Positions 6,234 to 27,798 of a stretch of 30,301 nt of DNA are shown here, one piece after another. Source of the DNA: Catajapyx aquilonaris (Eukaryota); NCBI GenBank assembly GCA_000934665.2, contig JYFJ02001210.1:62001-92301 (forward strand). Direction: 5' to 3'. Positions within the stretch are counted from its first letter, which is position 1. Each line of letters begins with the position of its first letter. The notes below the pieces were generated by a model. The model was given only the letters and a program-made list of their open reading frames with translations. It searched no databases and was not told the DNA's origin. The position numbers were made by a program, and so were the translations under genes.

Positions 6234-6264
6234 GGTCTACGGAATGGAATGGACGACGTGAAAG

Positions 6265-6282
6265 CAGCAGCAGCAGCAGCAG
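6265..6282 (+). repeat. (CAG)6 microsatellite just downstream of the Knk2 stop codon
   Basis: Directly visible. Confidence 0.85.
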
Positions 6283-7279
6283 AAAAGGACGGAGGATGAA
6301 GATGGAGTTTGGAATTTGTACGACGAATCTCAAGTGCATACCAAGACAGCGAAGAGGACAGTTGGGCTACGTTTTTTGCATTGGTTGGGTTGGCGACGAT
6401 GAAGCGTTTGCTGATGGGGAGAAAATAAGGGACAAAAGAGAGGTTGTGTGGAGAAAATCATGCCAGTTTGTTGCCTACAACGGACACTTTCCAGATTTAC
6501 GTTATATTTTGGTCTATTTTACTTTTAATGCAGGACTGGTCTTTTCGCCCCGTTTTGGTGGAGTAAGTGGGCCTTGGTCCATTGTGCCTGTTCCTCCGAA
6601 TGGCGGTAGGGTTTAATCACACATCATACATACTCACACGAACCCAGTTCGGGCTCTTTTGATTTTAACCTTCCTCGATAATTTTTGTTTCGTTAAAAAA
6701 GAAAAAAAATCACCGGTTTATACTCCCTCGTGTTCCAATTCAACATATCAGACTTCTTTCCTTATGTTCCGGAAATCACGGCGCCGACGGCATGGTTGTG
6801 AGCTATGACGCGTGTGCACTTTGCACCTAATTACAGGTGTGATCGGGGATGAAAATGTACACGATTTGTTTATAGGGCATTTCAATTCCTTCCACGAAGG
6901 GAAGTTGGATGCGTTTTTCGACAGAACGCCCTCCGTTCCAGTAGGTACACCTGTGCATGCAACTTCTGTTCATACCTGTACAGTTTGAAGATTTTTAAAA
7001 AATGCGACGAATAAGTAAGCACAAGTCTGCTCAAACTCAGAGAGTTGACAATAAGTAATTTTTGTACGACAGTGCTTTCCTTTAGGTCTTATTTTGTCCT
7101 CATAGAAATCAGACGTTAGTTACCTCATCATTTGACGTGACGCCAATGTTCCTGTGTTGTAATGGAGAGAAAAAAACAACAAGTAACCCAAGTCTATTTC
7201 TTTACGGTCCTATACGATGTGTGCTTTATATAGTTTAACAAGTAATTTATGTACAGTAGTAGGTCAAAGACCACAACGG

Positions 7280-7775
7280 CAGGGATTAACGAACGAATTA
7301 CTGTTCCTCTTCCGATCTCCAATCACCTCCAGTTAATGTGACATATTTTAATAATTATTAGGCAAAATGACTCATATTATATGGAATCATTTATAATCAG
7401 AAAACTTACTCGTATAAGCACAAGGCCGTCGTTTTGTGCCCGTTAGAGGTCATCAAAACTCTTACGACGTATAGTATTTGTCGGCATGAACATAATAACG
7501 CATCATGACGAACATGTGCGACAGTGATGTTCAGTATTTATGATTAAAGTTTGAGAATTAAAGTAGCATTAGTTATGTCCTAAATATATTTTGTTGGTCT
7601 TTAAATGTTTGCAGCAAACTAATGGTGCTAGTAATTCTGCGAGTGATGTTTATTATTATTCATAATATTATTGAGCAGGTGATAATGACGCGGTGTGAGG
7701 CACTTGTTCAAAAGCAAGGTACAAAACGATTGATTAATAAATGATATAGCCAAACGTTCAAGTCGTTAATCCCTG
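7280..7775. mobile_element. Putative non-autonomous DNA transposon (MITE) with hAT-like CAGGG termini
   Basis: Perfect 13-bp inverted repeat CAGGGATTAACGA (7280-7292) / TCGTTAATCCCTG (7763-7775) around an AT-rich non-coding interior. No matching TSD seen. Confidence 0.45.
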
Positions 7776-10700
7776 GCCAGCATCAACAGATGCCCTATTG
7801 TTTTAGGTGGTCATCCAATGGTGTATTAATAGCGTTGTTTTGCGGCGACTATTTGGCGGAAGAAAATGGATAATATTCTAGACTTACTACAACACCACTA
7901 TCTACGCTATCATTTCAAGCTTTATCCTTCATGTTATGCCTTTTTATAAATGTAAGTGTTTCAAAGAAGCAATCTGAATGGTGAAAAAATGACCCGCAGA
8001 TCAATAATGTCAAGTGTCTGGCCTTCAGTTTGTTTATGCATTGAACGTATGACAATAATGAATATAACTTACACCTGTAAATCAGGCCAACTGATGATGT
8101 ACCAAAGTAGGTAATAGTGTTCCAGAGACACGATTGACAATAAATAACTGGTAGTAAAAATAACAATAATAATAAAACACTAACACTAACACACACACGT
8201 ACACAAAGTATCGTCGAACTTGAAACATGACAATAAAATATACCTTTCTGGTGAGCTTGGTTGATGGGAACCAGGTTATATCCGAGCAAGACTGAGACGT
8301 TCTTGCTTTTTTCGAAGAAAAGATTTATACTGTAAACGTATGCCCTGTTGTGAGAGTGATTGTCAGATGATGAGGCAGAGTGCAATTTGTCCCCCAATAT
8401 AGGATTATTTTATTCCTTTTGGGGGATTTTTAAAAAGGAGGAATGAACTACTTCCGCTTAGTGTTTGACTAGGAAGTGTAATTATGGAGCTAATTTTAAT
8501 AAGTAAGGCCACATAGAGCATTGAATGTCCAAATATGTTCATAGCCCATTCTTGTGGACAATAAGGTTTGAAGAAAAAAAGTATAATTATTTTAATTGTT
8601 CTGACTGTGTCCGTAGATATTACCGAAATCTGTGCCACTACTCCATATCAGTTGCCAACCGTTTTTATTCTTAACCGTTTTAAACCCACAACTACGTAGA
8701 ATTTCCAGTGCTATACAATGACCTATAATAACTGTTGGAGTACGTTTTGTCTCTAAAAAAGTATTCACAAAAAAATATGAATTTCTTCCTGGTAATGTAC
8801 GACAATAATATTGAACTGAACTACGAAGACAATATTTGACGACAATAATAATTTTAGGGTAAGTTTCCACCTCTACTGCATTGTGCTTACGGATTATTGC
8901 TGTCACACAAGTGTTGTTTTCAACACTTGTGTCATATCCATGTCCTGATGAGAGATCCTTTTGTTGCACAATAATTTTACTGGAAGTTGGATGTTACTGA
9001 AAGATTTTATATGATGCTGCTGAAAGTTACAAATAAATTTTCGTATAAAATGAACGCATTAAGCTTTTCAGTGATTCCTTCCCTTGTACATATCACACAA
9101 CTACATGCTACAATATTGCTTACGTTTAACCAGTGCAGACAGACCATTTCCGGGAGTTCGTTTCAAGATATTCGGAGATGACAGGAAGAGGCTGTGACCA
9201 CCCTTGAAATGAAGACATCATGGAATATCGGAGAAAACGTCCGAAAACATGATGGCCCGCATTTGGTATACGACCTTGTGTTTATAGCGTGATGTCCGTG
9301 AAGTTCGTCACGCTAATTTTTGCGTTTTTTTGCCCCACATCTCGTACTTAACGGACGACCCCTTTCATACGATATATTCAGCAATAATTATTGTCATTAC
9401 CTTCCGAAATATTTTGAAATCCTTGCTATAAATCAATGTACAGTACCCGAGGTATCTTTCTATTCAAGAGAAAAATATGACACCAGCACTGCCTCAGGTA
9501 TAAAGCATTGTTATTGGAATGATGGCATTGTTATTTTGCAACGATCATCAGACACAGCATTCCATATCATCCTGAGTTGCCGTCCCATCATATCTTGTTA
9601 CCGTCATGGAACCCTTTTGGAGTGTCACTTGCATATTCATTGGATTACACAATGAATCACACGATAGGGTAGTATTGTTTCTTGGTATTTTCGACTCACC
9701 TTGTCCTGCCCATGATGATGACAGGAGGACGAAAATATGCAGGGAACATCACGGCAAGGTGGGCTCAACTTTAGTGTTCTCATCTCGATCGAGACCGTTT
9801 GAGTAACGTATACAGTCATGTAGCTCTTGCCCGTTTCAGCCTAATGTCAGAGATCATTTCCTATCCCTCAGTGAAAATCACACGAATAAGGGCAATTAAG
9901 AGTCGGGAGAATACCAATGAAGCCCTTCCAGGTTGGCAATCATTAAGGCAGAAATTTCAACCAATACAACAAACTTGCTTTTCAAGTCTTAAAAATACGG
10001 CTCAAACTAATACATGCTCATTATATAAATGTTCTTCGCATGAATCCATCCTGCGAAAAGTTCCTTCCAATGACAGCAGTCACTACTACTGTAATAACAT
10101 GAAAACTCGACTATTCTGCTGCTCGTGAGGAGAATCACATACCGTACCGTACATGGTAATCGAGAAAATAGACTACAAACATACCGATAGTATTTGTGCC
10201 TAAAACATTTCTGCTGTGTTTTCTTTCAGTCCCACAAGAAGTGCACCTCTGATTCCGGTAAGATACCGGCCGGTTTACTTCGTGACTATATCATCGAGGT
10301 TATTTATGTCGCACTCGATGCAACATGGGAAATGTACAAAGAAACCTGCCAACCTACTCACGAAGTTGCTTAACGACTATTTCCGCGTTGTTGTTTGTTT
10401 TCTTCTCTGATGGAAACATCCGCATGCAGCTACCGCTCTGAAGGATTTAACAATCTCGCATGACTCTACGCCAGTCACTCTTTATGAAAATCCGCATCTT
10501 GTCCATCTCTCTTGGCCTAGAAGCCGCTCACGCAATGCATGTTCGCAGGTGCAAATGCACTAGTTTGCCAGAAAATGGAGGAACCAGCAGCAGAATAAGG
10601 GCCAAAGTTCAAGGTAATTCAGAAACTGAGATAAAAGTACAATGCATCCATTCAGTAATCTGATCTTTATTGTAGGGATGGTCACTATACGATGTGGCTT

Positions 10701-11541
10701 ACATCGAGGACTGTTTTCAATAAGGAGGGGAGCCGAAAGGAATTTGCCAAAGTAGTTTTCCATAATTATGGTCCCCCAAAATAAACCGGACTCGAGTTCT
10801 TAATTGGCCAACTGGGCCATTCGTTTGTGAAAGGAAATGATTACTTCCTGATTGGCAAATGAACCGCAATGCTCGAGCCGAGTGCACCTGTAAATCGAGG
10901 AACATTCGCCCAAGGCCGCAAATTCTAAAAATAAAAGAACCCGATTTGTCCCGCAGCCTGCATAATGACCCAAAACTTGACAAACCAGCTCAACATATTG
11001 GCAGTAGCAGGCAGCAATAATTTTGAAGGGCGCCCATTTCGTCACACATCCTCCGATTCAAGTCGCTCAGGCAAGACTTCGGGAAAGTGCGCGAGAGAAA
11101 CTTCCAACCTTGCACCAGTCGGGATAATGACCTCCACTTGAGGCTCAAGGGGGTACGTACTAAGGTTGGTGCCCCGCCCCTCCGTGCACTTGCTCTCCCC
11201 CAAACCAAAACAATTTTTCCTCCACACTCCCCTAGCAAGTTGCTTGGGAGCCAACCGAGCCCAGAAATGCCCGAGGACACGTAGCGGAGTCTCTCTCTCC
11301 CCCACCTTTCTTTTTCTCTCTGTTCTTTTCTTTTGCCTCCCCCTCTCCTCCATCCATCCACTCTTGCTATGGCCTGCTGCCCACCTGACCTCAATCCCAC
11401 ACACTCCTTCCAGGTGAAGCAGTGCTGAGGAGGGAGGCCCAACTGCTGCTGCTGCATTGCTCAAATATTCTGGTGTTCGGGACAAGGACCGGCTGGGTTG
11501 TAGATGCAAGGGAAGACGGATGTACGGGGGTATCCGGAAGA

Positions 11542-14500
11542 ATGAGGAAGATTCCCGGGTCTCTGCTGCTTACACTCTGCTTGGGTGAGTCTGTCATATG
11601 GTTGGATCTCTCTCTGGTCTTATGGCCGCATTTCTTTTCTATTTTGGGCAGCCACGGTGTTGGGACAGGACGATGACAAGCACTACAAGGGAAAGCTGAT
11701 CGGAAAGTTCAACTCGTACCATCACCAGGTCAATGGTGAGGTGTACGCTGTCAATGAGACTACTTTCCTGATCAAGGATTTCATATACGATGGAAACGGA
11801 AAGGACACGTTCTTCTGGGCCGGATCCACCAATCAGCCTGGAATTCAGGGGTTCCTGGTGCCAGACAGATATGGCAGGTGGGTTTTTGGAGGATGTGTCA
11901 TCCAGGGGTGTGGCGATCAAACCTCGACTTTTTTTTTTTTTTTTCGTTGGCAGGACCAACATCCTGCATCGTTACCTGAATGACGAATTCACCCTGAGTT
12001 TACCCGATGGCAAGAAAATGAGTGATCTCAGGTGGTTGGCAGTTTATGATGTGGCTCTCCAGGTAAGTCAAGTTATTGACATTCTTATTGATCGAAATAT
12101 ATTTGGCATATATAAATAATAATTTATTACAGTAATTCATTTAAAAACTCGTGTGGGCCAGTGGGAAAACCTATACAGTTACTATATTTTCAACGCACGA
12201 GTTGCATGCCATTCACATTAATGTTATAAAATTACTTGGTTTCATTTTTTAAAGAGTTATTGATGTCTTTGCGATATGTTAATTCTCCAAGGAAAAGAAA
12301 TGGGAAAAGCAATGTGCAGCAGATACAGTATTCATTGCAGGTATTTCTTAGTGATGTAAATAATAATGGCTAAGAAAATCTTTTTCGATGGATTTTTATT
12401 GAAAAAAGTGGATATCTGACTGTTATGTTATTACTGCATAAAGCAACATTCTCACATTTGTATCAATGATTACACGAGGGGGAGAATTTCAACCAATATT
12501 TAGACCTACCGCAATGCAATTAGGCTTTTCATTTAATGTATCATATGTATATTCACAAATGTCAGGTACAGAGTACAGTACATCAAAAATAATCACCAAA
12601 TGTATTATGATTCAGGCTGCATTTGGTGATGTGCCCATTCCCGAAGGCTTTGAAGCACCTGCAACACAGCAACTTTCTGAGTTGTCAAGACGGTCCCATG
12701 GAGTCAGTTCTGACAATGTGCTCATTGTGGATGTAAAAACTATCAGGATTCCTAACTTCTTTTATGATGGTCTTGGAAATGGTAACAATGTGCACTGCAT
12801 ATTTATCAAAAGAAAACTCTTCCATGTTTATATCTTTCAGACACTTACTTTTGGGTTGGAAGTACTGGAACTCCAACCACGTCAGGTTATAAAGTACCTG
12901 ATGAAAATGGATAGTAAGTTTTTACACTTTAAATGTCATAAGTCAGGAGTGAGCTATTAATATTATTGACGTACTCTTTTACCTAGCCTGGACCCAATCC
13001 GAGCTTATGATGGTGAGGATATAATCCTGGAACTTCCTGGGGATGTCTCAATATTTAACATCAGGTGGTTCAGCATTTATAATCTAGACACCAAAGAAAA
13101 CTTTGGATCTGTGATAATTCCTGACAACCTCAACGTAGCTCCATCGCTAGTGAAAAACATTGTAAGTTGCCATGTAATTCAACACACACTGATCAAATCA
13201 TCACTTTCTATTTCCCCCTTTAGCCTATTAAAAACACTTATCCAAACTGCGAACAACTGCATAGAAAATTGCAAGTCAGCTGGGAAATATTTGGACCGGC
13301 AATAACTATTGAATTGTCTGGCCAAATCAGTAAGTATGTCACTTGAAGAATGTTAAACAAAATTGTATTGATTCATCTTTCAGATGATGATGAATACATT
13401 TCATTTGGACTGAGTGGCTCAGACTCCAGGTCTACAATGGACGGAGCTGATGTAGCTGTGGTATACTGGAAAGATTTCAGCAGCTACGCAGTTGATTACA
13501 ATATAACTGGAAGGGCACCAGTAAGTACCAGAAGCATTATGCCATTTTATCATGCCTGCTTATGTAAACCGCTTTGTCCACAGTGCAATAATATTCTGGA
13601 GAAGTATCGTGGAGTCTGCAGAGACTTACTTGTTGGTGGACTTGATGACAACCAAGTCCACACTGGTTACAGACAGGATGGAGTGAGCACCATCACTTAC
13701 AGGAGATCACTCATATCTGGTAAGATCATCAGTGGTTGCAAATCTTTTGACACCTATTGCAGTCAACGAAAGTATAATCAGTATATAATTATATTAGCAA
13801 GGCCTTAAATGCTCCATAACATTACAATAACTTCATGCAATTTCTGTAATGCATGATAGTGCAAACTGCAAACTTACTCAGAGTAATGCATTTGGATGTC
13901 ACATATGGGACATTTGATGCTTTTGGTTTCATTTTCATCCTTTGATGTGATTTTGTGAGATCACATGCCTCATGCTCATGAGAATAATGAGGTTTCTAAT
14001 TGTATAGGAATGTGTCAGTCCTTTCCCTTAAAAATTGCAATGCCATATTATTCACTATGGTACATTTTAAACAACTTGAACTCACATGGAAGTTTTATGG
14101 TAAAAGCATGATTCTTTCCCTCAGCATAAAAATATCCCTGTTAATAGATGTGCTGTCTGTTTTGCAATTAATGGGTATGTTACACTTGTTATTTAGCGGA
14201 CAGTGGTGACAAAGAGTTTCCTAAGCAAGGCATATCCTATGTGGTTTGGGCTATTGGCCGCTTAAATGAAAAGTCTGAGCCACTTTTCCACCGCTATTAT
14301 CCCAAAAAAGATGTAAAGATTGAATTTGGGCGCAAGGGACAGATCAACTGTGTCTCCTTCACTAATAGCCCACCAGAAGCAATGTAAGTCAACATGCCGC
14401 AAAGCATCACTTCAGTCCTGATCAATGACTTTCAAAGTTATTAAACCAACCTCAATTTGTAGCGAACCATGGGGTCCATTTTCAATATTTGACCCGAAAC

Positions 14501-15277
14501 TCCGCATTATCTCAGCGAGGCTGGGACCTTCTGGAGGAAAGAAAGGCTACGAAGGTATCACAGGAATGCCAACAACAGGAACTTCGTGGTATATAAATGG
14601 CTTTCTAACTCCTGTGATCTACCTGCAACGGGGCCTCACCTATGCTTTCAAAGTGGAAGGTGGGAACAACCCCCACAGTGTGGAATATTATCATCCTTTC
14701 ATCATCACCACTGAGCCACATGGAGGATATGAAACCATATCCAACCTGGGAAAAGATGTCAGGGTACTAGCTGGAGTGGAGTACACAAGAAGAGGTCAGC
14801 CGAAGCCAACAACAGGTGATGAAACATGCCAGTTTCCGTAGTATCATGGTTGGCACCTACAGTGAAACTAAAACAATTTACTATAATTTTCCATAATAAG
14901 CGGGCCGACTTTGCCTGTGGAAACACACGAAGGCTGACAGACGACTGGATGACAACTTCGTCACCTTTCAAAAGTACCGCAACTCACTGACACTGGCGTG
15001 TCAGGAAGGTAAGTTTATTCATCAGCCTCACACAGACAATTCATAACTGACCACATTGTTTGGCCTTGCAGGTGAAGAAGCAACGTTGGAAGTGACACCC
15101 AACAACTCATGGCCTGACATTGTGTATTACCACAGCTACACCCAGGCCAACATGGGTTGGAAGATGCATGTGGTGGACAGTTTTACCAGAACTGTGCAAG
15201 TGTCTGATGCCCAATGGACTAAAAGTGCATTCATATTGGTCACATGTACCCTCATCATTCCAAGACTGATCCTCTGA
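11542..15277 (+). CDS. knk: Knickkopf-like protein (signal peptide, 2x DM13, DOMON, C-terminal domain, GPI-like tail), about 674 aa. Exons: 11542-11584, 11652-11877, 11954-12062, 12616-12781, 12841-12913, 12987-13161, 13224-13329, 13384-13520, 13584-13719, 14197-14383, 14463-14815, 14901-15008, 15072-15277
   Basis: 13 GT-AG exons total 2025 nt, in frame. Signal peptide MRKIPGSLLLTLCLATVLG. Motifs YKGKLIGKFNSYHHQVNGEVYAVN...YDGNGKDTFFWAG, PNCEQLHRKLQVSWEIFGP, GGNNPHSVEYYHP, DRRLDDNF and NMGWKMHVVDS match recalled Drosophila Knk. The C-terminus is hydrophobic. Confidence 0.9.
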
Positions 15278-15725: not shown

Positions 15726-16211
15726 ACAAGTTTTACCTTCCTACAAAATACAAAATGTGCACAGCCTTTGTTGAATACTAGCAACCACTTGCTGAATAAC
15801 GCAGTGACTAATAGTTCCAAATTGTACTTGCATGATAATTCCTTTTTTCAGTAACAATGCATGATTAAGTGTGTTTCTCAGTCGAAAACAAAGGCTGTCC
15901 ATAAAGCATGCCACACTGGTGAGGGGTAGAGGTGATGTCAGTGAAGACCAACATGTGTTGGGTTAGGGAATAGTTCAGCGAAGCATTCAAAAGTTGCATG
16001 ATACCTCCATGGACCCTCTCATCAAATTCTCCAATTACTCGATTCTTGTAACAACAAAAAGGTACAGAGGAGGGGTCTGGGCCAATAGCCAAAAATCAGC
16101 AAGACACACTTTATGGACAACCAACTCAAAAAAAATGAACAAAAAAGAACAAAAAGAAAACCTCTCTCACTGTCAGTGCATGCCAGAGGTTTTTGAGCTC
16201 AGTCCGTGCCA

Positions 16212-19200
16212 TTATGCTGGATCTCCCGGTAGTTCCTTCTCAGTTTCACCCTCATCAACAGGCAACTCTTTCTCAGTGGAAGCCAGTCCCTCACCACTGC
16301 CACTCTCCACTTCCTTCTCAATCTCCGCTTCCTTCTCAATCTCCACCTCACCATGTTTCAGTCCTCGAATAGCCAGGTCATACACAACGTCTTCCACCTT
16401 CTTCAAGTCATACTTCAGACCATCATATCGCCTGCGCAAGTGGTCATTCTTCAGATTCAGGAGGTGAAATCCTGAATTCAGTTCCTTCATAAACTTAAGG
16501 ATCTGGAGGGGACGATCATAATCTCCAGCAGTAACGCTGTTTACTGCAAAGCGAGACTGGAAAAAAAACACCAACATAAAAACTGGCCAAACACACAGAG
16601 AATGTCACATAGTATTACCAGCTCTGATGTCATATGAAGCAAGCCACTCAGGTAGTCTTCCAAATCAAGATGAAAGACACCTCTTTCAACGGCCACTACA
16701 GAAGCAAAGAAAAATTACCAATCTCATGTCATAAAGATTATTAATCCAAAATGTCACACACACTCTTGGCGGATAAGGGAAAAACAGAATGAACCGCCTC
16801 ACCTCCCAAAAGGTCACAAACTTGTTCACGAGTAGCCAAAGTGTCAGTCTCCAGGTAGATCGTCAACGCCGCTAAGAAGACCAACCTTTGGGTGGCAGCT
16901 CGCCAATGATCATGGAACCGATAAAACTGGTCAGCAGGAACCTTCAGCTTCAGAGCACCATAGAGTTCCCGAACCTTCTCAAAGTACTGATAGGCCTGCT
17001 CACATATGATGGCCACTGAAAAAAAAAATAACGGCAACTGTAAAATGCATCACACATGAAGAATGCTCCCACACTGTCACCTATCTACAGGAAATAATCC
17101 ATAATTGCATGCTGGGTAGTACACACTGTTCAAGAGGAAGGTAGGGGAAAACCACGCTTTGTTCAACCCAGCAACCAGTTTAATAAAAAGCAACCAGGCC
17201 GCGCATAAAATATCGATATCAATCCCGATACATCGATAAATCCGCCATGTTGGATTTCCCACGTGGTCAATCGAAACCTATTCATTCGATCACTCTGGGC
17301 TTATCCGGCGTCCTTTTTGGTGCTGCCTGCGATTAATATTAACCGCACATCAAGTGAGCAACCTGTAAGGCTTGTGTATATTATTATTCCTCTTCACACT
17401 GACAATGCTATTTTTGTGCAGAATGGCGACTTGCAAGGATTCGCCAGAAAACGTCACTCTCTGCTACCTCTACAAATTATCAGATGAGGATAACGGACTG
17501 CCACTTATTAAGAAGCTGATGGAATGGGGCTTGCTAGCACAGGAAGGTACTAAGAAATGCCCCCGCAATCACACGATGTGCATCAGAGCAAGCAGCACCA
17601 TCCTTGACAAGTACAAATGGTCATGCAGCGCAAAACGGTCAAAAAAGAATACCAGACTTTGCAATTACAGGTGGGAAGCAAACGATGCAGAGCCAGCGCA
17701 ATACTAATCAGACGTATTTCTTCCACAGTTGCTCCATCAGGAAAAACACCTTCACCTCCCGCTCGCATCTAACTCTATTTCAAATAGCAGCATTTGTACA
17801 TATGTGGATCAATCATCTGTCCCAGTCGTACATTGAGAATGAACTGTGCCTTTCGAGGACAACCTGCATTGATTATTCCTATTGCTGTGGTGAAATAGTT
17901 TACAACTATCTAATTAATCAGTCCACGAAAGTAGGAGGGGAAGGAACTATCGTAGAAATATACGGCTCCAAATTCAGCAAGAGGACAAGCGACGAACAAG
18001 ATATCATCACTGAGAATTGGGTTTTCGGTGGCATTCAACGGGGAACAGGAGAATTCTTCTTCTTCACAGAGGAAGACAAAGACATAGGCACTCTGGACAA
18101 CCTGATCGAAAGCTGGATACTCCCTGGAACAACAATAATGTCAGAGTGCTGGACTGTAAGTATCACATGCGTGACTTTGACTGGATTGCACCACTGCACA
18201 GAGATTGACTAACCCAGGATTTATGTTGGTGATTCATTGCTGGCTCCAAAATAAGAGTGAATGACAAGGACAAACCCATGACTGTCAATTTCCCTGACGA
18301 GGTGCAACCCAGATTTTATAGTTTGCAGGCTACTGGAAACTTGCCTTTTCAAATTCTGAAACTGGAAATTTCAGTTTCCATACTCTGTGACTGAGTATAG
18401 ATTTCTCACCCACTAAAAGCTCCTAGATACTTGAAGCCATTATTATTTATTGAACCGAATGGTTCTGACTTCACAAGCCATTAATTGTTAGTTTCATTAT
18501 TGAGAGTCATTGTTGCCCATTGTAATGTGAATACGATTCACTGGTTGTAAAGCAATAATAGCTTGTGCTTATCACTGATTGTCAAAATTAAACGACGAGC
18601 ACTGGCTGACCTGCTACTTTGCCATCCCAATGAAATAAGCCTTATCTGCAAAATTGGTAATGACGCATGTCTGACTGGGAGTGAGCAATTAAGTTTTGAA
18701 ATTCCCAGTTTCAGTTCCAGGTTTCATAGTGGTATGCAAACAAAGTTAATGACATGCTGGCATGATCAGAAGTCATGAGAAATATTATTTACAGGAATAC
18801 AAAAATGAAGCACAGAAATGTTATGACCATTTCCTTGCAAAACACTTCGTCAAAATTGTGAGTCCAGACTTGGGGATGGAGAAAACTCTGTTACTTCGAA
18901 AGTACAAAAGGCCAGAATTACTTGGTAGCAATTTGGCAAGATACATCTTCCAGAAGAAATGCAAAGCACACCAGCTGACTCCAACCATTGAATTCTTCAA
19001 ATGTGCAGGAACCTTCTACAATCCCTTACTACCCTTGGAAGAAGAGAGGCATGAACGCAGTCAACAGGAAACAAAAGAAGAACAAAACTCTTACGAAGAC
19101 TTCACCACTGAAGATGAACTACCCTTGGAAGAAGAGAGAGCTGAAAGCAGTCTGCAGGAAATGAAAGAAGAACAAAACTCTTATGAAGACTTCACCACTG

Positions 19201-22200
19201 AAGATGAATTGGAAGCTTCGTAATAAATGCACATTCACTAGAAACTATAGTGTCATTTACATATTTGCTACCTAAATCTGCCTAACTCAAGGTATGTTCC
19301 CAAGCTCAGGAAAATGATAAATAATTTTTGAGGGAACTGAGACTTCTTGCCGAGAGTGAGAAGTCAACCTAAAAATGACGTTTGAGAATTGCCTCTCGCT
19401 CTTGCTCACGCTTTTGCTATGACTAATTCTCATGAGCTTGGGAACACATCTTACCCCAAGGGAATGGTGTCTCGTGTAATCATATACGAGGGCTGTTCAA
19501 AAAGAAACCGAACTTTTTCTATCGCTCAATTTGCAACATTTTAAGCACTGTCCCCTTCAAAGTAGTTCCCTCTACTGGCGATAGACAGTTTTAAATTTTT
19601 TCTTCCATTGTTGGAATGCTTCCTGGAACGCACTTTCTATGATGGCGCACAGTCGCATTGTCCTGAATCGCTTTATGGTTCGGAAATGATGTCATTTCAA
19701 ATTTGTTTTAAGTTTTGAATATAGCAAAAAGTCCGGTGAGGCTAAGTCCGGAGAATAGGGTAGATTGGCACAACAGATGTCTGATGTTTTGCCAGATAAC
19801 TGATGACGAGGAGCGATGTGTAAGCCAGCACATTGCCATGGCGCAATATCCAAGTCTGGCTTTCCCACAATGTAGGCATTTCCTGGGCACAGCAGCCCTC
19901 TAACATTATGGTACAACACTGTTTGTCTAGCTGTCAATCTGACAACATGGTCCGAATTCATCAAGTAAAATGCCTTTCCAATCCAAAAAGACAACCAACA
20001 TCACCTTGACCTTTGACCATCTGTGCCTCATTTGGTCGAGGAGACCCTTCCCAAGTATAGTTGGTAAAGCAATTGAAATGTCGCTGTAAAATATTTACCA
20101 ATTTACTAGCGAAATTTCACGTCAACACGTTGTTTTTCGAGCTCTCTCATTTTCACTTTCTCACTAATTCAGCTTGTCCAAGTGCGCACTTAAGTGGATG
20201 TATCTCGATGATCAATGGTCATAGTGGAATGTGGCGAATGGCAATTTGTTGTCAAGACATGTCGCTAGGTGCTGTCAGTAGCCTCAATACACTCTTTGTG
20301 CCGGTTGACGCCCTATTTAAAAAGTTCGGTTTCTTTTTGAATGGCCCTCGTACACTTCAACAAGAAGTAGCCAACTCCTTGGCCTAATCTAACTTAGAAA
20401 CATGGGCAAGCAGTCAAAGGTAGCCTGCAGATATCCAGGTCCTGGAACATGACTTCCGTGTAAAATGGGGAGGCATGGTGGCCGAGTCAGTGACGAATCG
20501 GCTCGCTTAGTGGAAGGTCCCAGGTTCGATCCCCGCCTGGGAGTTCCCTTTCGCTTGAGCCAGGAGGGTCTCTAACCCGCGCCATGGAGGCATCTGGCAA
20601 CCTAACCTCCAGTGAGACTGCACATGACCCCTTTTCTGATATTGCACTTGCACCTGTATCTCCTCCTCAAAAATCCCTATCCCTACCTCATGTCATTTCT
20701 TCCCTGCAAGGTGATTGAAGAAAAATATTGCAGAAAATTGGAGGAAAAAATGGTGGTATTCCTTATGAGGGCCAATTTTTGCAAACTTATTTATCTAGAC
20801 TCTCGACTTTCTATAGAGCAACATGCTAATACTAGTAACATATTCTTTGAGTAATTTCATAGATTACTGCAGTAGCTACTTCCATGGATAAATAACATAG
20901 GTACCGATGACTCACGAGTAAGGAACAGATTTTTAGGTTCTAAAAAGTCCTCCAATAGGTAGGCATTTAGGCCCTGAAAATAGTCAAAATAGGCTCTTAA
21001 TAGGAGGTAAAAATCAAGCCGCAGGTCCTAATTTATTTTCATTTCTACACACTTTTACAGCCTACTCTTGACCATGTAATTTTGCAGCACAGTAACAAAC
21101 TAGCAGTTGTTCCATATTTTCGTTGGTTAATAGCAGTTATTCGGCGATGCCTGTCTGACAATACACTTCTACACGCTGAAAATGACCTTTTGACGTCACA
21201 CAAAGTAACTGGATCATACTTGAAAAGTGAAATGTCTTCTATAGCCAGTTCATCTGGCATGCCTGCAGCTGCTTCGCCCTTCACCGGTTGAAGTGGGAGA
21301 GATTCTTTGAACGAAAAACCCACAGAACTCTCGGAAATATTACAAAACAGCATCAAAAAGGTGAAAATAGGTGCAAAATAGGCGCTAATAGGCCATTTAG
21401 GTCCCGATGCCCAAAATCGGCAACTTTTGGTTCTGTAAAACTACGATTTTGAGGTCCTTGTGTTATGAAACAGTCCGATATTTTGGTTCCGGTGCTCTGC
21501 CTACAAAATAAAAAAGTAGGTAAAAACCTAGAAAGCCGTTCTCTACTCATGAGAAATAAACTGCAACTAATGTACAGTTTACTTATATGTCAACGCACAT
21601 TCCCCTGCCAACACTTCATATGTGATTTCCCAATAAGCAGAATCCTTCTACAAAATGGGCCCCTTCATTACCTAACTTTCTAAGTGCCACTTATTAAGAT
21701 CACGACAGCCAAATAAATTTATGCCATGTATTGTAAATACTATGAACACTTGCAATGCATACCGAAGCCGGTTGGTGTGGTGGTTAAGGAGCCCGGCTGC
21801 TAATCGGGAGGTCCTGGGTTCGAATCCCGGGGCCGGCGACCCTGACCGTGGTTTTCTGTGGTTTCCCACGGTCCCCCCAGCGGCCCCAGGACAATATTCT
21901 AGGGTCGTTTCCGTAACAATAGGCCACAGCCACTTCCTTCCATCCGTATCCTAGGCACTAGGCCCCACCTGTGTTTAGTAAGTCAAATTGAAGAAAACTG
22001 ACGGTGGTATGCCACTCCGCCCTATCACGGGGTTTTTAAAAAAATTGCACTGGCAATGCATAACTTTGAACACCACTGTTTCTGACTTGATGGCTGGTAT
22101 GTTCATTATGGCCACCTGCTCAAGTCATCCACCAAACCCAACATGATGCCCTCGGTTGCAGGGCGCATACCAATCTCATTATACTTTACTACTCTTTAAA

Positions 22201-22429
22201 GTGCCAGCTTACATCTCTTGACCCCATCCACCTGGTGAATCTCCTGCAGTACGGCCAGCAGCTCCCTGGAGGTCTGCTCAATGTCCCGCACCACCACTCG
22301 AATCACCTGAAAGACAAAAATGTCCCAATCAGTGCCATGTGCTTCACTAATAATTACACACCAATTAACCTCTCTGGACTCCTGATCAGCAGTCATGGCC
22401 TCCAACGCAACCTGAAATATGCTGGCCAT
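16212..22429 (-). CDS. trsn: Translin (C3PO subunit), about 262 aa with an acidic C-terminal extension. Exons (-): 22370-22429, 22213-22306, 16803-17015, 16619-16695, 16212-16556
   Basis: Spliced product MASIFQ...DQESREVIRVVVRDIEQTSRE...QFYRFHDHWR...QRLVFLAAL...FHLDLEDYLSGLL...ELSRFAVNSVTAGDYDRP...GFHLLNLKNDHLRRRYDGLKYDLKKVEDVVYDLAIRGL carries the translin signature motifs. All junctions are GT-AG; 789 nt in frame. Confidence 0.95.
17195..17364 (+). promoter_or_regulatory. Putative core promoter and 5' UTR exon of the nested transposase-derived gene
   Basis: DRE TATCGATA (17211-17218), DRE-like CATCGATA (17231-17238), YY1/Pho-like CCGCCATGTT (17242-17251), E-box CACGTG (17260-17265) and Inr-like TCATTC (17282-17287). 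The patch is locally CpG-rich. A donor GTAAGG at 17365 pairs with an acceptor AG at 17420-17421, just before the ATG. Confidence 0.6.
17423..19223 (+). CDS. IS1595/Merlin-type DDE transposase-derived protein, about 367 aa, catalytic residues substituted; nested antisense in translin intron 2. Exons: 17423-17670, 17729-18155, 18795-19223
   Basis: Spliced ORF of 1104 nt with no stops or frameshifts. It has a Zn-ribbon-like N-terminus (CPRNH...WSC...CNYSCSIRKNTF) and IS1595-type motifs VGGEGTIVEI(Y)GSKF, WVFGGIQRGT, WILPGTTIMS(E)CW and YDH...KH...VSPD. An AATAAA overlaps the stop codon (19222-19227). Confidence 0.82.
18321..18741. mobile_element. Degenerate inverted-repeat element (MITE-like) in intron 2 of the nested gene
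   Basis: CTGAAACTGGAAATTTCA (18356-18373) vs TGAAATTCCCAGTTTCAG (18697-18714) match 17/18 as an inverted pair. The outer arms GTTTGCAGGCTACT / AGTGGTATGCAAAC are also partly complementary. Confidence 0.4.
19029..19208 (+). repeat. 2 x 90-bp in-frame tandem duplication encoding the acidic 30-aa repeat LPLEEER...EEQNSYEDFTTEDE
   Basis: Units 19029-19118 and 19119-19208 are directly alignable with few substitutions. Confidence 0.92.
19291..19450. mobile_element. Short MITE, possibly PIF/Harbinger-type
   Basis: Imperfect TIRs GGTATGTTCCCAAGCTCAGGAAAAT / ATTCTCATGAGCTTGGGAACACATC, flanked by CAA and TTA. Confidence 0.55.
19487..20350 (-). mobile_element. Internally deleted mariner element with a degenerate transposase remnant
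   Basis: About 32-bp TIRs CGAGGGCTGTTCAAAAAGAAACCGAACTTTTT / AAAAAGTTCGGTTTCTTTTTGAATGGCCCTCG (2 mismatches), with TA on both sides. Minus-strand remnants PYSPDLASPDFLLYSKLK (mariner YSPDLAPxD motif) and IASRGNYFEGD. Confidence 0.92.
20467..20725 (+). mobile_element. tRNA-derived SINE, older copy related to family A (3' end approximate)
   Basis: GGGGAG head, A-box-like TGGCCGAGTCAG, B-box GGTTCGATCC. It shares the internal ATTGCACTTGCAC motif with family A. No clear TSD. Confidence 0.65.
20911..21553 (-). mobile_element. Deleted hAT-like DNA transposon remnant
   Basis: Imperfect TIRs CTCACGAGTAAGGAACAGATTTTTAGGTT / AACCTAGAAAGCCGTTCTCTACTCATGAG (about 23/29). Repeated subterminal AATAGG motifs. 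The minus-strand peptide DISLFKYDPVTLCDVKRSFSACRSVLSDRHRRI resembles the hAT C-terminal (PxTSxxxERxFS) dimerization motif. Confidence 0.7.
21762..22047 (+). mobile_element. tRNA-derived SINE, family B
   Basis: tRNA-like head 21767-21838 (B-box GGTTCGAATCC), insect-SINE-like body (GGTTTTCTGTGGTTTCCC...AGGCCACAGCCACTTCCTTCC), A-rich end, and a 15-bp TSD with one mismatch CACTTGCAATGCATA / CACTGGCAATGCATA (21747-21761 / 22048-22062). Confidence 0.85.
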
Positions 22430-22905
22430 GTTCGGGGGCATGTGTCGACCTATCCGTCTGGCTGGAACTGATGTTTCGTGGGTCACACAAATCCTGGAGA
22501 AACAGACAAAGCCTACTGGAATCACTAGTCCACGTGGGAACCACCAACCAACGTGATTCCATAGGCGCTGCCTGCCTGCAGGTGGTAGAGGCTATGTTTA
22601 TAACATTTAACATCTATTTTAAATATTTTTATAGTTCAGTGTATACACTGAACTATAAATAAATAGGATTTAAAACGTGGCAATAACCACACTGGTACCC
22701 TTGTGTCAAGATGGCTGCTCTCATGATGTCCGTTGTGCAGAATTTAAACAACTTTCGAATGTTGGGAGAGTAAATATCCCTTTGTTGGTGCTCGTGGAGG
22801 ACGGCGAGACACATATTTGGTAAGCCCTGCTGCCACTGGGAAAAAACGGAGATAAATTTCTTTAATGGGAACTAGTTGGGCCTGCAGAGTCGTACGGAGT
22901 GCAGA
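22430..22905. promoter_or_regulatory. Probable bidirectional promoter region shared by translin (-) and Rad17 (+)
   Basis: The ATGs are 476 nt apart, head-to-head. Motif1-like GGTCACAC (22481-22488), E-box CACGTG, YY1-like CAAGATGGCTGC (22707-22718), and a probable Rad17 5' UTR donor GTAAGC at 22820. Confidence 0.65.
22628..22659. repeat. Perfect 32-bp palindrome TTTATAGTTCAGTGTATACACTGAACTATAAA
   Basis: 16-bp arms, fully complementary, no spacer. Confidence 0.95.
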
Positions 22906-25837
22906 ATGTCGTGGGTGCAGCCAGATTTCGAGGACTGTTTTGCTTCTGATGTGGTGACGAGCGCTAAAAAATCTGAAGGAAGGAGATGGACCACTCCAAA
23001 GAAATCTGAAAGGAAATGGGGCACTCCGAAGAAGGCGATAAGCAGCAATAGAGGAACCTCATCGCCTCGCCATAAGCCACTCAACACCTCAAAATTATGG
23101 ATAGAAACCTGCCAGCCAGAATCAAAGGCAGAACTAGCCGTGCACAAGAAGAAAGTGGAAGAAGTGGAGCAGTGGATGGACAGTGCCTTCAACGGCAATG
23201 GCAAGGTAGTGCGTCACGTTGAGAGAAAGGATAGCCTATCAATGCAATATGTAACCTTCATGTTTCGTATCAACAGACAAAGTGCCTGCTCCTGACTGGG
23301 CCGGCAGGATGTGGAAAAACAGCGACTGTATTGACACTGGCTAAGGAGATGGGGGCACACATTCAAGAGTGGATCAATCCAGTAGACCTGATTAGGTGCG
23401 ACAGTTGGGGAACCAGCAGCCAAGAAGAGAGGAGTGAGTTGTGCCTACTAATTGTCCGAATATAATTTGATTGGACTTGGACTATGAATTTCATCAAAGA
23501 GTTTTCTACAGGCTATAAATTCTACACGACCAAATATTTCGCAATAAAATGTTCATGGCATAAACGTTAGTTCCCAACCTTGAGCAAGAGCAAAAAGCCA
23601 ATTCTTTCACCTCATTTGTCCATTGCCTTGTTGCTCACAATGCTAAAAAGTCTCGAATTTGCACCAAAACTCTCATTCTTGAGATCTTGGGGACACAACT
23701 TACGATATCTCTATTGCAGGAACACGTACGGACTACATGAAATTCTACGAGAGTCAGGCAAGCGCCTTCTCAGACTTTCTGTTTCGAGCAAGTTGCTACC
23801 CTAGCCTAGATTCTAGTAGAAAGGAGGAGGTATCAAAGACACTGATTCTGGTTGAAGACTTCCCAAATGTGTTCACTACATCTCCAGGATCTTTGGGCAC
23901 TATAATCAAGAGGTACATTCAGATCGGAACGAATCCTATTGTCTTTATTGTAACAGACAGCTTGGACAAGGATTTCAACTCTAAGAAACTGTTTCCAAAA
24001 CAACTGATGGCGGAGATGAGGATTGACACTATTCAGTACGTGGTCCATGATTTGGTAGCCAAAGCTGTGGAAGAGCGGATTTAAGTGTCAGTTTGTTTTA
24101 TCCAGGTTCAACCCAATTGCACAAACTCTGATGGTGAAGGCATTGGAGAAAGTTATGAGATGTCAGGGCCCAAACTTCAAGGGTCCTTCAAGACCTGTTC
24201 TCCTGGCCATGGCTGACAATAGCTCTGGGGACCTCCGAAGTGCTATTAATGCTCTCCAATTTGGATGTTGCAAGGACGTTGGTAGGCTCTGCGAATCTTT
24301 TCAGGGAGCAAGGACGGTCACTTCTGAGAAGAAGCGACGCAGGACTAGTAATAAGCCAGCATCTGACACAACACCCCCGGCAATTGGAGGAAAAGACACC
24401 CCTTTGTTCTTTTTTCACGCCCTTGGAAAGGTTTTACACTGCAAGCGTAAGTTTCAACATGCACACCTCATTTAATTGGCTGCATCTGGTTACACTAGTT
24501 GCTGGAGTATACAATCCATAACTTTTTCACCTCCTCCTTTTTTGGGACCTGGACAGGAGAGGAGTTTAGCCGCAGTAGTGAAACACTTCCTATTAACCTG
24601 AAGAAGCATGAACGACTGCCGCTTCAGACCATCCCAGAAGAAGTTTTTGAGCAGTCACACATAAATGCTGACTCCTTCCAGTTGTTCTTACACCAGAACT
24701 ACGTGCCCTTTATGCCTTCAGTTGAAGAGATTGCAGCTGCTGCTGAGACTTTCAGTGACGCAGATTTTATTATGGGACATTGGGAGGTAAGAGTTAATTG
24801 CATACTGCAAGCAAGTTGATGCTAATTCCAATCTTACTGGTAGAGCAAGAAGACCCTTGAAGACTGTGCTGCTTCTGTTAGCCTTCGAGGAGTGATGCAT
24901 GCCAATGATGGAACCAAGAAGGTGGGATGGATGGCACTGCAAAAGCCGCAGATGTTTGAGGTTCAGAAATTGGTGAAGGAAAGGTATGCGTGGGTCAATG
25001 TATGCATTTTTCCTTTGCATTCATTATCAGTCCTTTAACTACAAAAAGTGGGAACAATTGATTAGCCAATCAACTTTTGCTCAAGTCAGCATATTTGTTC
25101 AAGTGTTAGCACTGTATTGTGGGGCGACCTTGATTAGGTCAAATGATGAAACCATGCATATTTAATTTGCAATTCTTTTAATTTGCAGACTTGAACAGGG
25201 GAAAGCACTATACATGAAACCAGGGTGGTCATCGGAAGACTTGTTCACCCAGCTAATTCCATACTTAAAATTCTTCAAGTCCAATGTGCAAGGTGGGTTC
25301 AACCAACAATGCTGCAGTTATTTTCAGTAGTATTATGCGAGTACTTTTAGTTCTACAAGCTTGTGTGATCAATGGTAAATGAAGAATAAGTGATTGATCC
25401 ATGTTGTTCGTGCAGGATTAATTACTTGCCGGCGATTTATTGTCATTCACACAGCCGGCATGCAGAAAACATCAGGACAAAAAACTCACCCCATAACATT
25501 TGTGGATTTGGAATTTTTTGAAAATTAATTAGCTACTTTCTTCTCAGGTAATCAGCGATTTGCTGCTGAAGTGGGTTGCATCAATACGAATCACTTTAAG
25601 AAGTAAGTTGGAACTTGTGTAACATGACAGTGTGTCTCAACCACATAAAATTTAATTATTTTAATATGCAGTGCCTTGGGAGAGAAAATGAGTGCCAGTG
25701 ACATGGACCAAGATGAAGAACAAATGGGTCGCAACATAATTCACGCCCAACTAGGACAGATTAACTACAGTGATAACCTACAGGAAGTGAATCTGAGTGA
25801 TGAAGAAGAATATGAGATTGAAGAGTACATTGATTGA
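22906..25837 (+). CDS. Rad17: Cell-cycle checkpoint protein Rad17 (9-1-1 clamp loader), about 602 aa. Exons: 22906-23205, 23277-23433, 23720-24035, 24106-24446, 24557-24786, 24844-24983, 25189-25292, 25548-25602, 25672-25837
   Basis: Motifs LW...P...ELAVHKKKVEEV, Walker A LLLTGPAGCGKT, QEWINP, LILVEDFPN, QFNPIA, SGDLRSAINALQF, GGKDTPLFFFHALGKVLHCKR, LFLHQNY, and an acidic tail ending IEEYID*. 1809 nt in frame; all junctions GT-AG. Confidence 0.95.
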
Positions 25838-27447
25838 ATTAGATTGCATTTTTCATACTGTATGTTAAATTGTATGCATTTCTTCTAAGCTGCAGTTTTG
25901 TGTAAAAATGTAAAATATATTTTCCAACTGTCTTATATGAAAATAATACAAAATGGATTTGAAATTGCACATGAAGTCCTTTGAAATTCAGAAGAATTAC
26001 GCACACAATTATTGGTCATTGGATAAAATTGAGTTAGGTATTTTGTGACATTTCGAGCCTATTACCTGACCATTATCTTGTAAATAATGTATTCTCATTT
26101 TTTTAAACTAATGTGTCAATGACATGATGTAATTTGAGTTTTACCTCATATTGCAGTCCAGTTCTCCTGGCCCACTGGGTACTGGTGGGATGCAGGCTGC
26201 ACTTTACTGAGAACCACTGCTTCAGACCCTTGCCACAATGCCAATTGATTCTGCAACATTTGTGAAAACTATTTGAAATAATGATTGTCTACATAAGCAA
26301 CTATTTCAAGAATTTGAAAAGAAAAAAAGTTTATCCCAAACCCACACAAGCTAAATGGCAGATGTGATTATAGCTACTCCAGGATGCTGCCCCAATGTCC
26401 CACAGGTACTCTCTGATTCACATAAGTCTGAACCTTTTTGGATACCTATACGCCAGAAAGTAGTGCCCAACATGCCGGGCCCTACAGATCTTCACAACTA
26501 AATGTGCAGTTTGTGTAGAGCTGCAGCTGCCGCATGGACTGCCCATGATAATTAGGCATTCGAATTACATGTACCAGCACTGTTTCTTCGAGAAAGCCAT
26601 AGATACTGGGGACTAATTTTGCAGCGGCTCACCCCCTCGGGCGTATTTATATCCAAAAAGTTACCTCTAAGTTGCTACTTTTGACAACTTGTACCTTATC
26701 TGTGCATGTTAGGGCATCTGCCCCCTGGAAGGGAGCCTATTGCATTGAATGGGTCAGCATCATACAAACAAAAAAAAACATTATGATGTGTCTCTATAAA
26801 AAAGATAGTGATGTAACAGATGCAAGTCAAATAATAATTATGTGCTTAATAAATGACACAAAAATGCATGGCATTCAATGGATCATCATCACTCTGCAAA
26901 AGCAAGCCATTGATTTAAACCAGTACCGTATATTGTCTTTATCAAACCTATGTGGAAGACGTATTAGATAAATGTCCCTGTCTCATCCTATTCCCATAGA
27001 AGCCTCAAGCACATGCACTCACAAGTCAGTCTCACATCAAAGCAACAACTTCAATGAAATCAATCAAGCATTAAAGCGACTTCTTCAGGCATGTGTTGCT
27101 CCATCATTAGACACACAAATTCCACCTCCATGATGCATCTAAAAGCACAACTATCTATTGCATATCATCAACTAGATGCAAAACTCGGCTGAGTCAGGCA
27201 AATCATGATTCATGCATATTTGAAGGACATGGCATGCTAACAAGAGTAATAAAATTAATGCACAAATTCTCTCCAATTAATTAAATTACTATTAAACTGT
27301 GACCAATGAATGCAAACTAAGGCACACACACTCTCTGATTCACATGATTTCACACTTTTCCGGAAAAGAAGGGATGCAATTGAATCAGACATGCCACTAC
27401 ATCACCCTGTAAATAATGAAGATGCTGCATAATTATAAAAAGATCCT

Positions 27448-27798
27448 GGGGGAGACGGAGTGGCGCCGCGGTAACGCGCGCGCCCACGGAAGTTAAGGTC
27501 CCGGGTTCAATCCCCACCCGGGGTTCCCACCTTCTTTCGTGCAGAGTTGGGCCATCTCTGGCTTCGTTTCGGGTGGCAATTTCCGGCAGACTAAGCCACC
27601 CGGGGGAGTTCACAAAATGACGATTAGAGACATTGCACTTGCACTTTGCACATCCCCTCCCACCCACCCTTGGAGCATACTAATTAAGATTCTTCTTAAA
27701 CTCGCTCCAAAAACAAATTCCAAAGGTGGCAACCCACCCCCCCTAAGGAGTAGTATAACTCCCCCCGTGGGGTAATGAAAAAAAAAAAAAAATATATA
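27448..27798 (+). mobile_element. tRNA-derived SINE, family A, copy 2
   Basis: Near-identical to 3345-3688. Poly(A)/(TA) tail and a 14-bp TSD TATAAAAAGATCCT (27434-27447 / 27799-27812). Confidence 0.92.

Follow-up and report, generated by a model that had tools for sequence, protein, structure and literature searches.

The domestication of transposases by their hosts has been a recurrent source of transcription factors, centromere proteins and recombinases. Within the superfamily known as Merlin in eukaryotes and IS1595 in bacteria, mobile Merlin elements are described as having terminal inverted repeats (TIRs) that start with GG and target duplications of 8-9 bp, and conserved Merlin-type copies without TIRs in Stentor and Perkinsela have been proposed as domesticated, the Stentor copy having neighbouring genes that are shared between two species (PMC8101967, the available portion of which does not state the condition of the catalytic triad in these copies). 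Likewise, in a ciliate study, DDE_Tnp_IS1595 genes of Blepharisma, Oxytricha and Stylonychia are TIR-less and developmentally upregulated, and the Blepharisma members appear to have complete triads, with no function known (bioRxiv 10.1101/2021.12.14.471607). In the literature searched, from which supplements were outside the scope and some sources were available in part, we found no characterised Merlin/IS1595-derived host gene in animals, only untested protist candidates, and the accessible text of bioRxiv 10.1101/2021.09.26.461848 makes no mention of Merlin domestication. Here we describe a spliced gene derived from a Merlin/IS1595 transposase in Catajapyx aquilonaris, found in a 30,301-nt stretch of contig JYFJ02001210.1 (the window; position 1 is its first letter in all coordinates). 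A first-pass annotation of this DNA was aware of no characterised arthropod gene domesticated from the superfamily, which holds in that no animal example was found in those sources and needs qualifying in that protist candidates (Stentor, Perkinsela and the ciliates) had already been proposed.

The gene is an immobile, expressed and catalytically dead derivative of a Merlin/IS1595 transposase, with no near-identical second copy, and lies within an intron of translin on the opposite strand. Its model was compared with sequencing runs from the same organism, of which X1-X4 are four runs of a single sample, possibly the one from which the assembly was made, with X1 and X4 used as DNA runs, and X5 is a run from another sample and study in which 31% of the sampled words are present. 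The library type of X5 is unrecorded, and the run was judged cDNA-like solely from its spliced contigs. Contigs from X5, X1 and X4 were compared with positions 16100-22800 at a likeness of at least 95%. The features of the locus are as follows.

17016-22212, minus strand: translin intron 2 (its second coding intron), 5197 nt, which holds the transposase-derived gene in antisense; an X5 contig joins 17015 to 22213, CT..AC
17423-17670, plus strand: coding exon 1, residues 1-82 plus 2 nt; N-terminal helix and zinc-ribbon-like region
17671-17728, plus strand: intron 1, 58 nt, GT..AG; cut 17670/17729 in an X5 contig
17729-18155, plus strand: coding exon 2, residues 83-225; three-helix helix-turn-helix (HTH), then strands 1-4 of an RNase H-like core, with Y160 at the first catalytic Asp position and E222 at the second
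18156-18794, plus strand: intron 2, 639 nt, GT..AG; joint 18155/18795 in an X5 contig
18795-19223, plus strand: coding exon 3, residues 226-367 plus stop; second half of the core, degenerate and with its catalytic Glu segment deleted, then conserved C-terminal helices and a strongly acidic tail
19028-19207, plus strand: two tandem in-frame repeats of 90 nt (30 codons), 90% identical, which form the acidic tail and the last 180 nt of the coding sequence
19222-19227, plus strand: AATAAA, overlapping the TAA stop at 19221-19223

Joined in this order, the three exons give 1104 nt, or 367 codons followed by TAA, with no internal stops, and reading on in frame through intron 2 meets many stops. Set against chance, stop-free stretches in the six frames of the whole 30.3-kb window reach at most 224 codons, and the longest is the one in the frame of exon 2. 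Both introns begin with GT and end with AG, and pyrimidine-rich tracts lie ahead of their AG ends. The rebuilt model reproduces the first-pass annotation's joining of three open reading frame (ORF) fragments, through GT-AG introns of 58 and 639 nt, into an uninterrupted protein of 367 aa, and AATAAA was found at the stop, where it had been reported. Separately, the two tail repeats differ at 9 nucleotides, 2 of them synonymous and in the outer, otherwise identical parts, and 7 within four adjacent-to-central codons, a sample too small for a test. Intron 2 also contains an 18-nt inverted repeat (18356-18373 and 18697-18714, 94% complementary, arms 323 nt apart), and this may be a small insertion resembling a miniature inverted-repeat transposable element (MITE) that makes up much of the intron.

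Over 16100-22800 the X5 contigs skip five introns and leave the intron sequence uncovered, so the run behaves as cDNA. Both introns of the transposase-derived gene are removed in these contigs, as in the processing of a host gene, with one contig crossing the intron 1 joint (38 letters on its short side) and one crossing the intron 2 joint (119 letters on its short side); the two junctions singled out for a check in RNA are both seen. Neither joint was found in the DNA runs X1 and X4 (0 contigs each), and therefore the spliced form is not a retrocopy. The translin joints in X5 (16695/16803, 17015/22213 and 22304/22368) are all CT..AC, that is, minus-strand introns, Pfam Translin matches minus-strand exons at 16212-16604, 16541-16714 and 16741-17049, and the joints bracket the gene on the opposite strand, in keeping with its earlier placement antisense within translin intron 2. 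Since its transcripts are spliced GT..AG on the plus strand and those of translin CT..AC, they are not by-products of translin pre-mRNA. X5 contigs cover the coding stretches 17473-17666, 17740-18155 and 18795-18913, with no cover from this run over 17220-17443 and 19012-19459, which include upstream motifs and AATAAA. The gene is real, transcribed from the plus strand and spliced as predicted.

Upstream of the coding sequence, the palindrome TATCGATA is found at 17211-17218, 205 bp before the ATG, and is the only one in the window (0.27 expected per 30.3-kb window). We take it to be the DNA replication-related element (DRE) motif of arthropod housekeeping core promoters. It is followed by ATCGATA at 17232-17238 and CACGTG at 17260-17265, and the ATG has an A at -3 and a G at +4. 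By inference from these motifs, the TATCGATA region is a candidate promoter, and a 57-nt leader intron upstream of the ATG is possible at 17365-17421 (GT at 17365, AG at 17421); no X5 contig reaches any of these features. The single TATCGATA, the context of the ATG and the AATAAA at the stop count as signals like those of a host gene.

Family membership was assessed using exon 2 (142 aa) as a HMMER query against 1.84 billion representative proteins, which returned 2048 proteins at E-values of 1e-3 or lower and 416 at 1e-10 or lower. The best single-unit matches are 43-47% identical and typically 300-380 aa in length, with P0003 at the top (7.6e-29). From the best 150 listed of the 2048, the 70 relatives of 280-450 aa were used to make a family profile of 329 positions, with the other 80 excluded by length, and the spliced product aligned with this profile in one piece over positions 1-326 at an E-value of 1e-82, compared with 0.0015 for the best of 20 shuffles. 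Taken singly, exon 1 aligned at 2.5e-11 (positions 1-77), exon 2 at 1.1e-55 and exon 3 at 1.3e-10 (positions 230-326), and the exon junctions align to the relatives without an insertion or deletion (indel) at either one, which agrees with the joints seen in RNA. Pfam PF12762 (DDE_Tnp_IS1595, 'ISXO2-like transposase') was detected in 11/11 single-unit relatives tested (6e-10 to 1.5e-21), P0003 among them at 4e-17, and 26 of 30 Atlas neighbours are named ISXO2-like. The proposed check of the gene itself against DDE_Tnp_IS1595 gave a divided answer: those relatives carry PF12762, and exon 2 on its own, intron 2 cutting the domain in two, reaches 13.6 bits (E 0.067) and stays under the cut-off of 27 bits. 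No Pfam family matched exons 1 and 3 searched separately, and no NCBIfam family matched the three exon pieces. None-the-less, homology to Merlin/IS1595 is secure because exon 2 matches P0003, which itself carries PF12762, and because of the spliced product's own profile match, and the descent from an IS1595/Merlin (ISXO2-like) transposase put forward in the first-pass annotation is upheld.

Over their full length the closest proteins, P0003 and P0020, are each 34% identical to the gene product, and P0007 is 42% identical over 210 residues (BLAST). The AlphaFold model of P0020, the nearest full-length relative, has a predicted local distance difference test (pLDDT) score of 86 and displays an N-terminal helix, a small beta-rich Cys ribbon, a three-helix HTH and an RNase H-like core, and a Foldseek search with it matches retroviral integrase cores, the Mos1 mariner transposase and the ISCth4 transposase, with E-values from 5e-5. 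The two top-scoring matches in the exon 2 search are of a different form, P0001 (1611 aa) and P0002 (1750 aa) containing 10 and 7 exon 2-like stretches, respectively, with 4 DDE_Tnp_IS1595 stretches in P0001, which could reflect tandem copies of the element or the fusion of gene predictions.

In the alignment with the 70 relatives, VEIYGS and MSECW occupy the positions of the family motifs VEIDES and SDCW. The first-Asp column holds D in 50/70 relatives (Y in 5, E in 4, G in 3, N in 3, V in 2, and H, I and A in 1 each) and is Y160 here, with the next conserved E replaced by G. The second-Asp column holds D in 62/70 and is E222 here. Three aligners place a deletion of 11-13 residues in HTNxIExxW, the segment whose helix bears the catalytic Glu: MAFFT leaves a Leu at the E column, HMMER a single Glu between gaps of 5 and 6, and with BLAST 13 residues are gone, including IE. 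The first-pass statements on VEIYGS, IMSECW and the missing E segment were therefore right by this alignment. With Y160, E222 and the third segment deleted or unalignable, the DDE triad is incomplete, and the protein would therefore be unable to catalyse transposition, either cutting or joining DNA; judged from its residues, it is catalytically dead. A micro-exon in intron 2 that might encode the missing E segment was considered and rejected, as the deletion is placed some 28 residues into exon 3, away from the junction. The active site was also examined by structure prediction, as had been advised, and in the AlphaFold2 model of exon 2 (pLDDT 91.2), which leans on the alignment of relatives, the two canonical aspartate sites are taken by VEIY, on core strand 1, and by SE, where strand 4 ends.

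In 54 columns one residue is shared by 75% or more of the relatives, and of these the gene keeps 34 and deviates in 20, the second lowest retention among 71 rows, for which the median is 0.87. Agreement is found mostly in the hydrophobic/glycine core (VEI, WVFGG, TL, PGT-I-S, W and Y); the lost columns include polar residues around the active site (DES, K, the E of ERG and the NH of VNHS). The zinc-ribbon cysteines and histidine had been reported as kept, and this is true of 3/4 conserved Cys columns and not of the second Cys of the CxxC, which is a gap here and C in 61/70 relatives, with a His four residues after the first Cys. The DNA-binding head is thus eroded as well, less so than the active site.

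The Tyr at the first catalytic Asp position is shared with 5/70 full-length relatives (P0020, P0037, P0045, P0093 and P0119), which are scattered over the tree, and the D-to-Y change was rejected as the mark of a special clade, only P0020 grouping with the gene and with a support of 42. Many of the predicted ISXO2-like proteins in the database may be dead copies or further candidates for domestication.

Copy number and mobility were assessed using the DNA runs. A single 6083-nt contig spans 16100-19512 in each run, at a depth of 34.9 in X1 and 20.5 in X4, close to the 37.9/24.5 and 32.2/21.3 (X1/X4) of neighbouring unique contigs, and over 16100-19459 the summed depth is that of this one contig in both runs, with the reservation that contig depth is not equivalent to copy number. 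No second copy was seen in X1 and X4 at a likeness of at least 95%, a search blind to copies less than 95% alike. The copy-number check thus returned one contig at the depth of its unique flanks. Likewise, no TIRs were found when the flanks 17016-17422 and 19224-19900 were compared, the best inverted local alignment scoring 17 against a median of 20 for 200 shuffles, and the repeat listing of the window contains no inverted repeat pair that brackets the gene, so that the lack of TIRs reported earlier stands. At its flanks the locus therefore has neither the TIRs with 5'-GG nor the 8-9-bp target-site duplication of a mobile Merlin element, and multiple copies were not seen at the stated likeness. 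What is left is a transposase-derived, intact ORF that is immobile and not repeated. As a separate observation, a 27-nt inverted repeat (19289-19315 and 19426-19452, 85% complementary, arms 110 nt apart) lies just downstream of the stop.

The rest of the translin intron, 19460-22147, is represented by hundreds of contigs with a summed depth of about 190 to 190,000 in the DNA runs. Remnants of mariner and hAT elements had been named in this part, and these labels were left unconfirmed, since none of the 12 ORFs tried from the repeat-rich remainder had a credible Pfam transposable element domain. The most repeated stretch of the intron, 21700-21923 (summed contig depth about 190,000 in the DNA runs and about 7,500 in X5), contains a tRNA-Ser(GCT)-like sequence at 21767-21838 on the plus strand, found by Rfam tRNA (29.8 bits) and also by ARAGORN, which is probably a tRNA-derived short interspersed nuclear element (SINE).

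Evidence for selection was sought in the protein databases, in a quick tree and in a neutral simulation. Three word-index protein searches (exon 2 twice, exon 3 once) gave no scoring match, and a metagenome scan with exon 2 produced 195 pattern matches, none of which was confirmed. In the tree the gene falls in a 17-row clade with a support of 89 by the Shimodaira-Hasegawa-like approximate likelihood ratio test (SH-aLRT), and its end branch measures 1.07 where the median is 0.78. The best tree pairs it with P0020 (support 42), a relative that likewise reads Y at the first-Asp column (the six Y rows need 5 changes on the tree) and that keeps the second Asp and the IE segment, both lost in the transposase-derived gene. 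In the simulation, which used substitutions only, so that indels would lower survival further, the open frame survived in 36% of runs at 0.02 substitutions per site, 8% at 0.05, 1% at 0.1 and 0.04% at 0.2. Despite its divergence, the gene keeps its 367 codons, four splice sites, start context and AATAAA intact. A frame that has stayed open through so far a divergence and an in-frame deletion favours selection for that open frame, and such a frame, given that much change, would be unlikely without selection.

Domestication of the gene by the host, the reading of the first-pass annotation, is plausible, with the considerations for and against it in about equal balance, and that it is an exapted DNA-binding protein, descended from a Merlin/IS1595 transposase and retained by the host, is likewise a proposition that could fall either way. 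Under that proposition, the zinc ribbon and HTH would bind DNA, possibly at sequences related to the ends of the ancestral element, the dead RNase H-like core would act as a scaffold or oligomerisation module, and recruitment or titration of partners would fall to the duplicated acidic tail. Kept by selection on the host, such a protein would regulate genes or repress related transposases. Only tentatively do we put forward a fuller version, in which this would be the first animal gene domesticated from Merlin/IS1595, nuclease-dead, with its zinc-ribbon/HTH head and RNase H-like scaffold kept, a duplicated acidic tail gained and its own DRE-type housekeeping promoter inside translin, serving as a sequence-specific regulator or a dominant-negative guardian against related Merlin elements.

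Several observations weigh against retention by the host. Copies less than 95% alike would have gone unseen in the DNA-run comparison, and the X5 contigs cover only about two thirds of the coding sequence. The DNA-binding part is eroded too, with the ribbon Cys missing and a conserved W and R of the HTH region changed to Y and G. The first D is also absent in 20/70 database relatives, and open but dead copies are therefore common in gene predictions. Nothing closer was found than 34% identity over the full length and 42-47% over part of it, and the gene may be lineage-restricted. Furthermore, the argument from divergence assumes an active ancestor that resembled the consensus of today's family.

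The main rival to domestication, possible if somewhat doubtful, is that of a transcribed relic: an old Merlin-type copy without its ends or catalytic residues, still spliced and with no host function, its frame open by youth or luck. Such a relic would account for the lack of any ortholog or conservation signal in the protein searches and metagenome scan, for a host intron otherwise full of repeats, for the frequent loss of the first D among predicted relatives and for the missing conserved residues in the DNA-binding region, and introns in the coding sequence and their splicing are by themselves no sign of function. The tail repeats differ by 10%, and if duplicated in place they would have changed by about 5% per copy, a distance at which 8% of simulated frames stay open. 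What speaks for retention by the host over such a relic is that 367 codons are open across three exons despite 20/54 conserved columns changed, three catalytic positions lost and 11-13 residues deleted in frame; with 0.1-0.2 neutral substitutions per site a frame would survive in 1% to 0.04% of runs, with indels not yet counted. Likewise, the splice sites of both introns, the start context and AATAAA are all intact, and core positions have been spared by the changes.

It is unlikely that the gene is still part of a transposon family, as a non-autonomous or regulator-encoding copy (for example dominant-negative or repressor-like) with diverged sisters and an autonomous partner elsewhere in the genome. 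The 95% likeness threshold of the DNA-run comparison would miss more diverged copies, and the nearest relative, P0020, shares the Y at the first D, so the Y state could predate the insertion. However, the flanks are without TIRs, neither DNA run has a near-identical copy, and P0020 retains the second D and the IE segment in a sister grouping that is itself weak. A chance open frame or an assembly artefact is very improbable, the RNA cover being incomplete at the 5' and 3' ends, but both junctions standing in independent spliced contigs, the locus lying within one 6083-nt contig in two DNA runs and the homology reaching an E-value of 1e-82.

The surroundings of the gene were also characterised. 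In the region 22213-24819, the first exons of translin, defined by RNA joints, lie at 22213-22304 and 22368-22534 on the minus strand, and Rad17 ORFs (Pfam Rad17 at 23683-24084, plus strand) point away from them; translin and Rad17 may share a bidirectional promoter. This genome-maintenance neighbourhood had been offered as a hint of function, a suggestion we set aside because a transposon can land in any intron and the neighbourhood accordingly says nothing on function. To the left, beyond the 3' end of translin, is a multi-exon gene at 2681-14841 on the plus strand with a DM13 domain (Pfam, 11546-11983), presumably Skeletor/DOMON-like. Two minus-strand ORFs about 24 kb apart, 3249-3575 and 27350-27679, have a near-identical translation of roughly 100 aa and are probably two copies of one repeat, to which ORFs at 21672-21950 look related.

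The locus is small and clean, its gene model is verified, and it bears a signature of exaptation in that the DNA-binding head and fold are kept, the active site is destroyed, the ends are lost, and the gene is single copy and spliced. If orthologs under purifying selection exist, one more superfamily would be added to the sources of host genes, and the gene would also offer a compact 367-aa protein in which to study the role of a dead RNase H-like core. If there are no orthologs, the gene would be a useful illustration of how long an open frame and its expression can outlast the loss of transposase activity.

Compared with Merlin/IS1595 transposases themselves, the gene product shares homology over its full length, with an N-terminal helix, Cys-rich ribbon, HTH, RNase H-like core and C-terminal helices, and VEIDES, WVFGG, PGTTIxSDCW and HTNxIExxW, the motifs of the family, can be recognised or traced in it. 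It differs from them in being without all three catalytic positions, TIRs and target duplications, and in having no second copy seen at a likeness of at least 95%. Pogo-derived CENP-B/POGZ-type proteins are catalytically inactive domesticated transposases of the same general pattern. With the TIR-less DDE_Tnp_IS1595 genes of protists, the gene has in common that it lacks TIRs and is open and expressed, with domestication in each case inferred and function not demonstrated; it has lost the triad, which appears to be complete in Blepharisma members, and unlike the protist genes it comes from an animal and lies within an intron of a host gene. PIF/Harbinger-derived insect genes (PMC9710019) and those derived from pogo belong to other superfamilies and are set apart by established cross-species orthology and purifying selection or function. 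The PIF/Harbinger-derived genes likewise follow the pattern seen here, in which the DNA-binding N-terminus and core fold are kept and the catalytic residues lost in a gene that is single-copy, contains introns and is expressed.

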